The notes under the pieces: generated by a model
Databases searched by the model: none
Told to the model about the DNA's origin: nothing
Seen by the model: only the letters and a program-made list of their open reading frames with translations
Sequence record: PQ657772.1
DNA: 64,000 bases
From: Escherichia phage EC.P1
Strand: one strand, 5' to 3'
Position numbers and translations under genes: made by a program
In this document: positions 19,916-21,173 of the stretch, one piece after another
Position numbering within the stretch: position 1 is the first letter of the stretch
Layout of the letters: the number at the start of each line of letters is the position of its first letter

Positions 19916-20038
19916 TCATTCCCCCATCAACCAATCACGTAGACGTTCCCAGAAGCCTTTTGGCTGATATTCTGGATATTCATATTCATCTGTTCCTTGC
20001 TCGGAAACACCCCAGTCTTCTTCTAATACTGTAATCAC
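19916..20038 (-). CDS. small acidic protein (40 aa), paralog of 21048..21173; not in ORF track
   Basis: Read by eye from GTG with GGAGG RBS: MITVLEEDWGVSEQGTDEYEYPEYQPKGFWERLRDWLMGE. Confidence 0.45.
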   Translation of the reverse strand: MITVLEEDWGVSEQGTDEYEYPEYQPKGFWERLRDWLMGE

Positions 20039-20049
20039 AATGCCTCCAA

Positions 20050-20472
20050 TTAAATTAATCTATCACGTAGACGGTCGTAATATTTTGCATGTATATCTAG
20101 TATACACTGAAATGACGGATAGTCAATACTAAATGTATCATCAATGAACATGTACTGATCAAGTGTTTCAGGACCATTATCATAAACTGGCAATGAACCT
20201 TCTTTTTTTAACAGTGTGTTCCACATCAAATCACATGTAGTATCGAGAATTGCGTATGCTAATTCTATCTTACTTTTTCTAAGTGTAATTAATAATTCAT
20301 CATTCTCTACTAACGCGTTTCGTATTTTTACACGTACTGTACCCTGAAATTTATTAGTGGTTAGTACTCTATATTGATTATACGAAATCATGCCTCGTAT
20401 TTCAGTACTGATTTCTTGTTCAGAAAAGTACCTTAATGTACTGTGGAAATTTGGTATTTTACGAATGTCCAT
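20050..20472 (-). CDS. hypothetical protein (paralog of 20459..20872)
   Basis: 140 aa; shared QY.FIDDTF..DY motif. Confidence 0.55.
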   Translation of the reverse strand: MDIRKIPNFHSTLRYFSEQEISTEIRGMISYNQYRVLTTNKFQGTVRVKIRNALVENDELLITLRKSKIELAYAILDTTCDLMWNTLLKKEGSLPVYDNGPETLDQYMFIDDTFSIDYPSFQCILDIHAKYYDRLRDRLI

Positions 20473-20872
20473 TCAAATTCCTTTCGTATATATGGTATAC
20501 GTTCATTATACTATTATATAGTTCATAGTCAAATCCAAATGTGTCATCAATGAACTGATATTGTAGATACTCTTCATATGAAGCATCAATTGGTAATGAG
20601 CCAGAACGAATATCATCTGATTTAAAATCGTCAATATATCTTAATGTTATTTCTTCATCAACAGTGATATCTATCATCAACGTATCGTCACTGTACCAAA
20701 GGTTATGTATACGGATGTAAAGTTTCTTAGCACGATTAAAACTAGATACATTGGTATTGCGATGGAGTTTATCTAAGTTGAAGTAAAAACCAGGCTCGTT
20801 TTTACTTATGTTTTTCATATGTTCTGCAATCGAATCAATTATATAATCAATGTTGAATGTTCTCATAAACAA
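20459..20872 (-). CDS. hypothetical protein (paralog of 20050..20472)
   Basis: 137 aa. Confidence 0.55.
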   Translation of the reverse strand: MFMRTFNIDYIIDSIAEHMKNISKNEPGFYFNLDKLHRNTNVSSFNRAKKLYIRIHNLWYSDDTLMIDITVDEEITLRYIDDFKSDDIRSGSLPIDASYEEYLQYQFIDDTFGFDYELYNSIMNVYHIYERNLNGHS

Positions 20873-21048
20873 ATCTCATAGCGGTTTGTGTTTGGATTGT
20901 AGCAATAGGTATCATTAATTTTAACACCAGGTTTAAGTGTTATTGTTGTTCCTACTTCAGTACTGGGTTCTGCATCACAATAAATCATCACACCAACGCC
21001 ACAGATTAAAGCTAAGATACAAATAATAGCACATATTGTATATTCCAT
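20863..21048 (-). CDS. small membrane protein
   Basis: Hydrophobic Cys-rich ORF; ATG at 21046-21048 overlaps stop of the upstream small ORF by 1 nt (track gives TTG start at 21066). Confidence 0.45.
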   Translation of the reverse strand: MEYTICAIICILALICGVGVMIYCDAEPSTEVGTTITLKPGVKINDTYCYNPNTNRYEICL

Positions 21049-21173
21049 CACTCCCCCATCAGCCAATCAAAGAGACGTTCCAAGAAGCCATTAGGCTTGT
21101 ATTCTGGTTCTTTGTTCACGTCGGTTTCTTGTTCATAAACACCCAAATCTTCTTCAAGTATAATTGTATTCAT
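21048..21173 (-). CDS. small acidic protein (41 aa), paralog of 19916..20038; not in ORF track
   Basis: Read by eye: MNTIILEEDLGVYEQETDVNKEPEYKPNGFLERLFDWLMGE. Confidence 0.45.
   Translation of the reverse strand: MNTIILEEDLGVYEQETDVNKEPEYKPNGFLERLFDWLMGE

Follow-up and report, generated by a model that had tools for sequence, protein, structure and literature searches.

The window, that is, the whole 64-kb stretch of DNA analysed, belongs to an Asteriusvirus-type jumbo coliphage. Two small ORFs, referred to here as ORF A and ORF B, are located on its minus strand among paralogous ORFs of the X family, between an HPF/RaiA-type gene and the gene of a CCA-adding enzyme. The features of the region are:

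18799..19914, minus strand: CCA-adding tRNA nucleotidyltransferase with PolyA_pol and PolyA_pol_RNAbd domains (phrog_2244); it starts 1 nt past the ORF B stop.
19916..20038, minus strand: small ORF B, 40 aa, GTG start, net charge −8, three Trp; conserved member of phrog_34272.
19919..19925, minus strand: GGGGGAA (Gly-Glu codons) at the 3' end of ORF B, a Shine-Dalgarno (SD)-like element for the CCA-enzyme ATG at 19914.
20043..20047, minus strand: SD sequence GGAGG of ORF B, 4 nt upstream of the GTG.
20050..20472, minus strand: X-family ORF, 140 aa (phrog_20693), immediately upstream of ORF B.
20459..20866, minus strand: X-family ORF, 135 aa (phrog_20693).
20863..21048, minus strand: ORF of 61 aa whose N-terminal segment is hydrophobic (phrog_4189, unknown function); 1-nt overlap of its ATG with the ORF A TGA.
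21048..21173, minus strand: small ORF A, 41 aa, ATG start; diverged second paralogue.
21173..21544, minus strand: X-family ORF, 123 aa according to the annotation of relatives, open up to 127 aa from TTG 21556.
21579..21995, minus strand: X-family ORF, 138 aa (phrog_36582), the array member next to the RaiA/HPF gene.
22050..22382, minus strand: HPF/RaiA-type ribosome-associated factor gene (annotation in relatives), upstream border of the conserved block.

The deduced product of ORF B is MITVLEEDWGVSEQGTDEYEYPEYQPKGFWERLRDWLMGE and that of ORF A is MNTIILEEDLGVYEQETDVNKEPEYKPNGFLERLFDWLMGE. Both are highly acidic, with a net charge of −8 in 40-41 aa and a pI of about 4.06. BLASTP revealed 25 identical residues out of 37 (E 8e-17), and the two genes share 71.5% nucleotide identity, with 9, 9 and 17 differences at codon positions 1, 2 and 3, respectively. 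A preliminary description of the window had noticed these paralogous minus-strand ORFs, and the comparison bears it out. The junctions it reported are also correct: the TGA of ORF B (19918-19916) is followed by a single T and the CCA-enzyme ATG (19914), and in ORF A the last letter of the TGA (21050-21048) is at the same time the A of the ATG (21048-21046) with which the small membrane protein begins. A scan of all six translated frames of the window with the family HMM recovered only ORF A and ORF B (E 1e-28, 5e-26); there was no third copy, the next match having an E value of 0.25.

ORF B matches phrog_34272 with residues 1-40 on profile positions 1-40 (E 3.2e-31), and ORF A with residues 5-41 on positions 4-40 (E 3.5e-16). 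This group, listed under unknown function in PHROGs v4, contains the hypothetical proteins 121Q gp538 (the ORF B orthologue), PBECO4 ACQ29_gp034 and fEgEco12 g279/g283. ORF B does not differ from it and has the same length, the same place upstream of the CCA-enzyme gene and identical proteins on deposit; ORF A is a divergent copy in a second position. The term "unannotated" used in the preliminary description thus holds only for its own ORF track, as proteins identical to both are hypothetical proteins in fEgEco12 (g279, g283), WPEC5 and others; the two genes are already known as such in GenBank records and PHROGs.

The conservation in relatives that the earlier description had proposed to look for is present. 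Orthologues were traced in 35 Asteriusvirus records as well as in jumbo phages that are less closely related. ORF B is represented in every single-copy and two-copy Asteriusvirus record except those of the JNE01/Turkey5 type, and ORF A accompanies it in only 6 of the 35. Nei-Gojobori estimates of dN/dS among B orthologues range from 0.03 to 0.2 (121Q versus UE-S1: Sd 11.5, Nd 5.5, dS 0.95, dN 0.06), and the A type that is the sole copy in JNE01 gives a dN/dS of about 0.06 against the B type at a dS of 1.3-2.3. Even the motif codons carry synonymous variation. Judged by these substitution patterns, the two ORFs truly code for protein and belong to one family of small proteins, and ORF B is, by the same measure, its conserved, functional orthologue.

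A profile search for distant relatives, covering 1.84 billion proteins, retrieved only stand-alone relatives of 38-49 aa, all within the block from lysozyme/RaiA to the CCA enzyme. Orthologues with as little as 42-55% identity occupy the same position, and in 7t3, fENko and Munch a 47-aa ORF lies right upstream of the CCA gene. The family members have a net charge of about −6 to −9 and a common layout, comprising a near-invariant N-terminus M-I-x-x-L-E-E-D-W-G-V-(S/T), an acidic linker rich in aromatic residues and, at the C-terminus, the amphipathic helix F-W-E-R-L-x-D-W-L. E6, E7, G10 and V11 are invariant in the alignment, and L5, D8, W9 and E23 are at least 90% conserved. The distant orthologues of 7t3-like phages and metagenomic jumbo phages retain both the motif MIxxLEEDWGV(S/T) and the C-terminal helix; ORF B has all of these features, including the Trp of LEEDWGV(S/T) and the helix W/F-x-x-L-x-D/E-W/L.

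Searches of Pfam, NCBIfam and PDB revealed no relative of known function for the family; the PDB profile search gave non-significant matches only, to an oligoribonuclease (E 0.45) and DMP12 (E 1.2). The literature on Asteriusvirus, fEgEco12, Sharanji, spanins, fENko-Kae01, DUF7230 and T5p086 yielded nothing on these ORFs. In the fENko-Kae01 record, RaiA, the CCA enzyme and Nudix are flagged as detected by LC-MS/MS, and the small ORF is not among them (PMC11218385). The tryptic peptides expected of ORF B from its sequence are ITVLEEDWGVSEQGTDEYEYPEYQPK and DWLMGE.

The family is located, in the window as in the jumbo-phage relatives, in the block between lysozyme/RaiA and the CCA enzyme/Nudix. 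In RaK2/121Q-related jumbo phages this syntenic block consists of lysozyme, HPF/RaiA, X paralogues of ~120-150 aa, the CCA-adding enzyme, Nudix and glutaredoxin, and Ribosomal_S30AE is present at the HPF/RaiA position in the metagenomic contexts. All these jumbo-phage contexts belong to one related clade, so that the conserved neighbourhood may reflect shared ancestry rather than functional linkage. The gene downstream of the small ORF differs by lineage, being the CCA enzyme, the membrane ORF, an X-family ORF or an unrelated ORF. No family member was found upstream of the CCA gene in RaK2 and two metagenomic CCA-enzyme loci (L007-L009).

In all B orthologues, GGAGG precedes the start codon by 4 nt. 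The stretch TTGGAGGC(A/T)TT followed by ATG or GTG is kept in all B orthologues, the start codon being interchangeable among orthologues, and an SD-like purine run precedes every distant orthologue. A ribosome_binding_site is annotated in the UE-S1 record at the position equivalent to GGGGGAA, and the last codons of the small ORF would serve also as the SD sequence of the next gene. At its own start, ORF A has an ATG that shares 1 nt with the TAA of the 123/127-aa ORF preceding it. Such overlaps would represent ordinary operon packing with co-translation of neighbours; the stop/start abutment probably gives co-translation here, as for most genes in this tightly packed block. Promoter and terminator scans gave sites at chance level only, and Rfam showed no match for the small-ORF region.

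ORF A displays a different evolutionary pattern from ORF B. It retains E6, E7, G10, V11 and DWL, and two of the three conserved Trp are gone (W10L, W31L); among the 14 family members, it alone lacks the motif Trp. The relative-rate test records 7-9 lineage-specific replacements in A against 0 in single-copy relatives (p 0.003-0.016), dN/dS between ORF A and JNE01 A is about 0.42, and the GGAG of JNE01 and Turkey5 has become TATAATATATA before ORF A here, with loss of the SD. In ph0011 copy A is a pseudogene with two in-frame stops, the downstream membrane ORF being still open. A segment of ~0.5 kb, containing the X ORF 21173..21544 and ORF A, is missing from 121Q-type phages, and synonymous sites are saturated between the A and B lineages. 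By this divergence, ORF A stems from a second and old lineage of the gene, and the replacement pattern marks it as drifting towards loss while ORF B is strictly conserved. In phages with both copies, A would be redundant and its constraint relaxed. The argument of the preliminary description that conservation of two copies speaks for real genes therefore stands in so far as the copies are real, paralogous and coding; it does not extend to equal conservation, as copy A is under relaxed constraint and is a pseudogene in ph0011.

Copy A could instead have been neofunctionalised, e.g. by acquiring another partner tied to the membrane ORF that follows it. This is considered unlikely. ORF A keeps the invariant E6/E7/G10/V11, the C-terminal DWLMGE and the 1-nt overlaps at both ends, its dN/dS of 0.42 remains below 1, and it is intact, with an identical protein, in five related phages; these five phages, however, are 95-98% identical in DNA, and the intact ORF therefore carries little information. 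The lost SD, the replaced near-invariant Trp and the two in-frame stops of the ph0011 copy, which stand in front of an open membrane ORF, point to decay rather than to a new role.

Comparison of profiles revealed a relationship of the family outside the jumbo phages. hhalign aligned it to T5p086-like proteins over 29 columns (probability 93.8%, E 1.7e-7); in a search of 1749 six-frame fragments from the window, the T5-family HMM placed ORF B at the top (E 0.002) and ORF A next, and a T5-like protein matches phrog_34272 with an E value of 5e-4. The 13-mer EEDWGVSDEDTRP is common to P0004 and P0039. These matches establish a new link, homology between the family and the acidic C-terminal half of T5p086-like proteins. 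In the T5p086/ORF083 family (phrog_4586), the homologous half reads MEE[DN]W[GD]VSE..., an acidic linker and ...WES, and lacks the DWL helix ending of the window ORFs. It is preceded by a basic, nearly invariant N-terminal DUF7230 (PF23876) peptide, MRNFVAKNDFNRASTHKSARDYTR..., which the window ORFs do not have: ORF A and ORF B gave no Pfam match at E ≤ 1, and the DUF7230 N-terminal HMM found nothing in the six-frame translation of the 64-kb window (best E 0.27). The T5p086 gene lies in the T5 early region beside rnhA, thyA and a peptidase gene, a context unrelated to the window block. A fusion ORF of DUF7230, the acidic module and an exonuclease-like domain is seen in three Sugarlandvirus records, the exonuclease assignment being sub-threshold in Pfam (E 0.0015, 18.7 bits versus a cutoff of 27).

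Three further candidates for relationship were tried and did not hold. T5p087 and the other T5 neighbours gave no match as X-like members of a cross-family gene pair; DUF7230 is not ArfA-like (hhalign probability 0.06%); and its likeness to T7 gp1.1 was not confirmed, T7 gp1.1 being Pfam Phage_1_1 with no DUF7230 match at E ≤ 1.

The AF2 monomer model has a low mean pLDDT of 62.7, with residues 1-26 unstructured and a helix at 27-38 (block pLDDT about 81). The model of X140, built from four window paralogues, reached a pLDDT of 45.8 and is too poor for a fold search.

Taken together, these observations incline us slightly towards the reading that the ORFs represent a genuine coding family, of which B is functional and A redundant, and that their product is a small binding protein active in trans. 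On this view an acidic chain, mostly disordered, would dock on its partner by means of the Trp-containing motif together with the amphipathic helix. This module also makes up the C-terminal half of T5p086-like proteins, joined there to the basic DUF7230 peptide, and in Sugarlandvirus is additionally fused to a 3'-5' exo(ribo)nuclease-like domain. These T5p086 and Sugarlandvirus fusions suggest a regulatory or interaction module that accompanies nucleic-acid-acting enzymes. In jumbo phages the partner would most plausibly be encoded in the block itself (CCA enzyme, X protein or RaiA) or be a host nucleic-acid-binding protein. The earlier suggestion that the ORFs encode small regulators is compatible with the data. 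A bolder version of this proposal, rather improbable at present, would make the acidic LEEDWGV module a portable motif across unrelated enterobacterial phages, directed at one conserved factor, of the host or the phage, in RNA 3'-end metabolism, tRNA metabolism or translation, and hence a new class of very small phage effectors; it might then, for instance, regulate the adjacent CCA-adding enzyme or neutralise a host tRNA-directed nuclease.

If the small protein has a fixed partner, the preceding X-family protein is one candidate, the two genes forming a stoichiometric module by coupled translation. With few exceptions among the lineages, the start of the small ORF coincides with the end of the upstream ORF or lies within 1-17 nt of it (ATGA/TAATG overlaps). 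This upstream ORF is of the X type before both A and B in the window and in 7t3, L022, L025 and L027, and minimal arrays have only a 55-58-aa ORF and the small ORF between RaiA and the CCA gene. An obligate pairing is nevertheless doubtful. Within an array that lies between RaiA and the CCA gene, an X gene is found upstream almost by default, and the 55-58-aa ORF is not detectably X. The X proteins are likewise acidic (pI 4.1-6.2), so that charge complementarity with the small ORF is absent. In Salmonella phage SD-15_S21, ORF B is intact though a deletion has left only a 33-aa remnant of the upstream X, and the T5-like homologues have no X neighbour. The small ORF was also compared with X as a possible truncated paralogue, the X140 end YYDRLRDRLI resembling FWERLRDWLM, and this was rejected (hhalign probability 1.8%); the 55-58-aa ORF of L020, L028 and L032 is unsupported as a mini-X (no HMM match at E ≤ 1).

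The preliminary description had also offered translational-coupling leaders as an explanation, in which translating the ORF and terminating at the next start, that of the CCA enzyme or the membrane ORF, is what matters and the peptide is functionless. Stop/start abutment or overlap (−4 to +1 nt) is indeed found in the window and in several lineages, and the last codons, GGG GAA/GAG, constitute the SD-like element of the downstream gene; in both respects, a short ORF ending at or in the next start and an SD inside it, the arrangement resembles TnaC-type leaders. Unlike these, the small ORF is selected along its whole length, has a variable C-terminus and a variable downstream gene, and shows no RNA structure. 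The peptide is under strong purifying selection (the dN/dS of 0.03-0.2 given above) and is best conserved at its N-terminus, far from the stop codon. The abutment is not universal, since a gap of 9-11 nt with an independent SD is present in 7t3, A4 and TH47. Both downstream genes are also found without it: gp535 of 121Q, the same gene as the 61-aa membrane ORF, is not preceded by a small ORF, and nor are the CCA genes of JNE01, Turkey5 and RaK2. In folding stability, the junction RNAs do not exceed dinucleotide shuffles (z +0.81, +0.52, +0.26, −0.28), thereby indicating no sequestering structure, and homologous sequence occurs inside larger proteins of T5-like phages. As the main reason for the ORFs, coupling is hence not sustained, and a purely cis-acting role is quite improbable.

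Still less probable, to the point of being very remote, is a regulatory nascent peptide that would stall the ribosome near the stop and tune the overlapping downstream initiation. TnaC and other arrest peptides are short and depend on conserved Trp, Asp and Pro residues, and the small ORF may be likened to them in its conserved, Trp-rich sequence ending at a downstream start. The helix WxxLxDW is conserved, but the last 3-10 residues differ between lineages. The 5-10 C-terminal residues, expected at the peptidyl-transferase centre if the ribosome stalled, vary, MGE being restricted to Asteriusvirus members and other lineages ending in NQKF, LGL, VG, FGD or GKRETK. The invariant motif is at least 30 residues away from the stop, longer proteins contain homologues of the peptide, and the downstream gene is inconstant. 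Chance ORFs or a repeated non-coding DNA/RNA element have a negligible probability and appear effectively refuted by the substitution pattern, for although 40-codon ORFs are very common in this AT-rich DNA, where 4.5 kb contain 57 ORFs of 25 aa or longer, the third-position excess of differences, the low dN/dS, the same-position orthologues down to 42-55% identity, the absence of an Rfam match, the shuffle-like folding and the chance-level promoter-like sites all stand against them.

The added value of the analysis is modest but concrete. Two short genes are re-discovered, which mainly shows that real genes of this genome are missed through the length cutoff of the ORF track. Purifying selection on the family is strong, and its members are restricted to one conserved translation/RNA-repair gene block of jumbo phages. 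The module shared with the widespread T5p086 family (529 phage records) provides a testable motif for two uncharacterised families, and the window offers a clean case of paralogue decay once two old gene-order variants were joined in one genome. A binding partner, if found, could reveal phage control of tRNA repair or of host translation.

Small acidic binders and nucleic-acid mimics comprise T7 Gp2, Ocr, T4 Arn and the bacterial DMP12. The putative trans-acting product resembles them in being small, strongly negative (net charge −8, pI about 4.06) and of phage origin, and may plausibly occupy the basic surface of a partner. No sequence or structural relationship with these proteins is shown (DMP12, E 1.2), and the likeness is one of general character. 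With 40 aa and a largely disordered chain, the small ORF product would be more of a short linear motif with one helix than a folded DNA mimic.

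Two small acidic ORFs, ORF A and ORF B, are located in the Escherichia phage EC.P1 window (PQ657772.1) close to the genes for a HPF/RaiA-type ribosome-associated factor (RaiA) and a CCA-adding enzyme.

21048..21173, minus strand: ORF A, ATG start, 41 aa
19916..20038, minus strand: ORF B, GTG start, 40 aa
18799..19914: CCA-adding tRNA nucleotidyltransferase (CCA) gene, downstream of ORF B
21173..21544: ORF preceding ORF A; its TAA shares one base with the ATG of ORF A
20863..21048, minus strand: 61-aa ORF with a hydrophobic N-terminus (membrane ORF)

ORF A and ORF B are identical at 25 of 37 aligned residues (BLASTP E 8e-17), and their DNA shows 71.5% identity, with 9, 9 and 17 differences at codon positions 1, 2 and 3. 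A single nucleotide separates the TGA of ORF B from the ATG of the CCA enzyme, and one base is common to the TGA of ORF A and the ATG of the membrane ORF. A search of the complete six-frame translation of the 64-kb window with a family HMM detected these two copies only. Coordinates, BLASTP, codon-position differences and HMM scan thus confirm in every detail the two paralogous ORFs and stop/start junctions of the preliminary description. Its term 'unannotated' holds for its own ORF track only, since identical sequences of both ORFs are annotated as hypothetical proteins in phages fEgEco12 and WPEC5, and the uncharacterised 40-residue family phrog_34272 is matched by ORF B (E 3.2e-31) and ORF A (E 3.5e-16). 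The region is 97.7% identical to that of Escherichia phage fEgEco12 and 81-88% identical to those of 121Q, PBECO4 and other Asteriusvirus jumbo phages; gp538 of 121Q is the orthologue of ORF B. Pfam and NCBIfam gave no match for either ORF, the PDB no significant relative of the family, and the literature searched no discussion of them. Both are real genes already catalogued as hypothetical proteins, and the novelty is limited to strong evidence of coding constraint, the asymmetric fate of the paralogues and a module common to the T5p086 family of T5-like phages. Apparent annotation slips were seen in WPEC5 (L002 2863-2985), where the label 'nudix hydrolase' has been given to the 40-aa ORF B and 'hypothetical protein' to the CCA enzyme, and in CMSTMSU (MH494197.1), where features covering the small ORF bear the name tRNA nucleotidyltransferase.

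Coding constraint was evaluated with Nei-Gojobori distances on ORFs extracted from 15 genomes (16 distinct nucleotide sequences). The dN/dS of ORF B orthologues is 0.03-0.2; the 121Q and UE-S1 pair gives Sd 11.5, Nd 5.5, dS 0.95 and dN 0.06. The element TTGGAGGC(A/T)TT ahead of the ATG or GTG start is kept in all ORF B orthologues. Salmonella phages 7t3, Munch and SE_PL and Klebsiella phage fENko-Kae01 encode a 47-aa orthologue (42-48% identity) directly upstream of the CCA gene, there with an independent SD and an 11-nt gap. Conservation at the protein level is thus evident in relatives, from the low dN/dS as well as from these distant orthologues in the same place.

Searching 1.84 billion representative proteins with a profile yielded only a handful of further members, which are stand-alone and of 38-49 aa apart from P0044 and P0042. 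The former, a 721-aa repeat protein, is a spurious match. The latter (metagenome-derived, 65 aa) is identical to copy A as far as ...DWLMG and from there continues in a shifted frame into the membrane ORF, which most likely reflects a 1-nt difference in assembly or sequence and no real fusion. The contigs of further members all display the same neighbourhood of lysozyme, HPF/RaiA, array, CCA enzyme, Nudix and glutaredoxin. Across 14 members (consensus MIxVLEEDWGVSEQGTDEY..PEYKPKGFWERLxDWLMGE), E6, E7, G10 and V11 never vary, and conservation reaches at least 90% at L5, D8, W9 and E23. Synonymous variation is present in the motif codons, the small ORFs have no match in Rfam, and the junction regions of both ORFs are no more stably folded than shuffled sequence (z +0.8 to -0.3). 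These observations, together with the low dN/dS, show that the constraint acts on the protein and not on an RNA or DNA element, and ORF A and ORF B are almost certainly protein-coding. The GenBank record of fENko-Kae01 marks RaiA, the CCA enzyme and Nudix as detected by LC-MS/MS and leaves the small ORF unmarked, which is evidence neither way because a 300-kDa filter had been used to concentrate the lysate and a protein needed two tryptic peptides to count as detected (PMC11218385).

Conservation of two copies had been taken to argue that they are real; both are indeed coding, but copy A of the window lineage appears to be under relaxed constraint and is a pseudogene in phage ph0011. Comparing the B genes with the A-position gene of JNE01/Turkey5 gives a dN near 0.1 and saturated synonymous sites (dS 1.3-2.3); this saturation indicates that the A and B lineages are old, with no recent duplication in this genome. 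As a sole copy, A keeps the full consensus, including all three Trp. The window-lineage A has 7-9 lineage-specific replacements, W10L and W31L among them, as compared to 0 in JNE01/Turkey5 (Tajima relative-rate p 0.003-0.008; binomial p 0.004-0.016), and is the only one of the 14 family members to have lost the motif Trp. Its dN/dS against JNE01 A is about 0.42, and the GGAG ahead of the A start is replaced by TATAATATATA in this lineage. Copy A of ph0011 (L010 2001-2126; OP557969.1 125386-125511) contains an in-frame TAG at codon 10 and a TAA at codon 14, and the membrane ORF downstream is still open; record OP557969.1 annotates neither. Redundancy followed by relaxed constraint is the simplest reading of these sequences. 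Neofunctionalisation of copy A is conceivable, as the ORF is intact in five phages; however, these are very closely related, so its intactness says little.

The RaiA and CCA genes flank a variable tandem array of paralogues of about 120-150 aa, here called X (phrog_20693 and phrog_36582), with a common C-terminal motif IP....EEEFFQ..LI.D...I.YD.Y.

Gene order around the small ORFs
121Q type: RaiA-X-membrane-X-X-small B-CCA
JNE01/Turkey5 type: RaiA-X-X-small A-membrane-CCA, B absent
Window type (six records): both modules
Salmonella SD-15_S21: deletion; 33-aa X-gene remnant, then intact B
RaK2: X-CCA, small ORF absent
Metagenomic lineages: small ORF, then another X gene, an unrelated ORF or the CCA gene

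In the window, four tandem X ORFs of 123-140 aa (20050-21995, minus strand) form one divergent paralogous family, the 123-aa member having no PHROG; X copy number among related jumbo phages is 1 to 5. The deletion in SD-15_S21 (L016 482-583) took one X gene and most of the next; the 33-aa ORF matches the C-terminal X motif only (HMM E 2.8e-15), and ORF B and its SD are intact. The membrane ORF (phrog_4189) has a Cys-rich hydrophobic N-terminal segment and a C-terminal part with Cys. Asteriusvirus phages conserve it whether or not a small ORF precedes it, and the LysM lysozyme gene is found three to five genes upstream of it. In the gap from the RaiA gene to the first X gene, a perfect, terminator-like palindrome with an 11-bp stem, AAAGGGACAGA...TCTGTCCCTTT (22014-22041), overlaps a good sigma-70-like promoter match (TTGACT-17-TATAAT, 22070-22042, minus strand) and probably marks a transcription-unit boundary. 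Metagenomic locus L020 has a similar hairpin after the RaiA gene (about 1135-1175).

The start of the small ORF nearly always coincides with the stop codon of the ORF before it (ATGA or TAATG), and a purine-rich SD lies ahead of it everywhere. Its terminal codons GGG-GAA/GAG serve as SD-like element of the next gene (annotated so in UE-S1), which is probably why the ...MGE terminus is fixed within Asteriusvirus and not elsewhere. A small ORF as truncated X was not detectable (hhalign 1.8%), nor were the 55-58-aa upstream ORFs of some lineages as X; the predicted structure model of X140, the 140-aa X ORF immediately upstream of ORF B, was unusable.

The small-ORF protein has a net charge of -8 in 40 residues and a pI of about 4.06, and ORF B contains three Trp, three Tyr and one Phe. 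AlphaFold2, run with the small family alignment, gave no confident structure for residues 1-26 and a single helix at 27-38 (block pLDDT about 81, mean 62.7), one face of which, as read from the sequence, would carry F29, W30, L33, W36 and L37. Such a make-up suggests an acidic peptide that is disordered, carries a short linear motif and has a helix able to fold on binding. More likely than not, the product is a small binding protein acting in trans, whose Trp-containing acidic motif and amphipathic helix would dock onto a partner that is probably basic and handles nucleic acids. This partner might be the CCA-adding enzyme encoded next to it, RaiA, an X protein, or a host factor that T5-like and Asteriusvirus phages both meet in their hosts; within this model, pairing with the upstream X protein would be a separate, though rather doubtful, possibility. 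A pure translational-coupling role, one of those proposed in the preliminary description, is improbable, mainly because the gene after the small ORF is not constant and the membrane ORF and CCA gene are each also found without it, which disfavours coupling into one particular downstream gene as the reason for the ORFs. An arrest peptide is very improbable.

In tblastn searches, weak but very consistent matches (E about 9) pointed to T5p086/ORF083 and Eps7 AGC_0097, a protein of 65-80 aa encoded by T5-like phages. This family, collected and aligned, has a nearly invariant basic N-terminus (Pfam DUF7230), then MEE[DN]W[GD]VSE, an acidic linker and ...KDPKQWES. When its profile was compared with that of the small-ORF family, the probability was 93.8% (E 1.7e-7). 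Of 1749 six-frame window fragments, the T5-family HMM placed ORF B at the top (E 0.002) and ORF A next, phrog_4586 and phrog_34272 cross-match in both directions, and the 13-mer EEDWGVSDEDTRP is common to one T5p086-family member and one jumbo-phage member. By these comparisons the small ORFs are evidently homologous to the C-terminal half of T5p086. DUF7230 was compared with ArfA, and likeness was ruled out; it gave no match to the tested member of the T7 gp1.1 family. In several T5-like records the T5p086 homologue is named 'metallopeptidase', apparently after the neighbouring gene. T5p087 (L030 3443-3958), immediately upstream of T5p086, is a very basic Ala/Lys/Arg-rich 171-aa protein and a possible charge-complementary neighbour of the acidic module.

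T5p086 itself lies in the T5 early region without functional annotation, and its family occurs in 529 phage records. It differs from the window ORFs in its basic DUF7230 N-terminus, a segment absent from the six-frame translation of the 64 kb by HMM search. In three Sugarlandvirus (Klebsiella) genomes, the DUF7230-acidic segment, with the motif MEENWDVSE, is the N-terminal part of a 334-335-aa ORF (L033 1798-2805; L034 and L035 1301-2305), the rest of which shows weak likeness to Rv2179c-like 3'-5' exoribonucleases (E 0.0015, short of the Pfam cutoff). The same segment recurs in part of phrog_255 ('exonuclease'). The jumbo-phage small ORFs, the T5p086 family and the Sugarlandvirus ORFs together indicate that the acidic module exists on its own, joined to a basic peptide, and joined to a nuclease-like domain.
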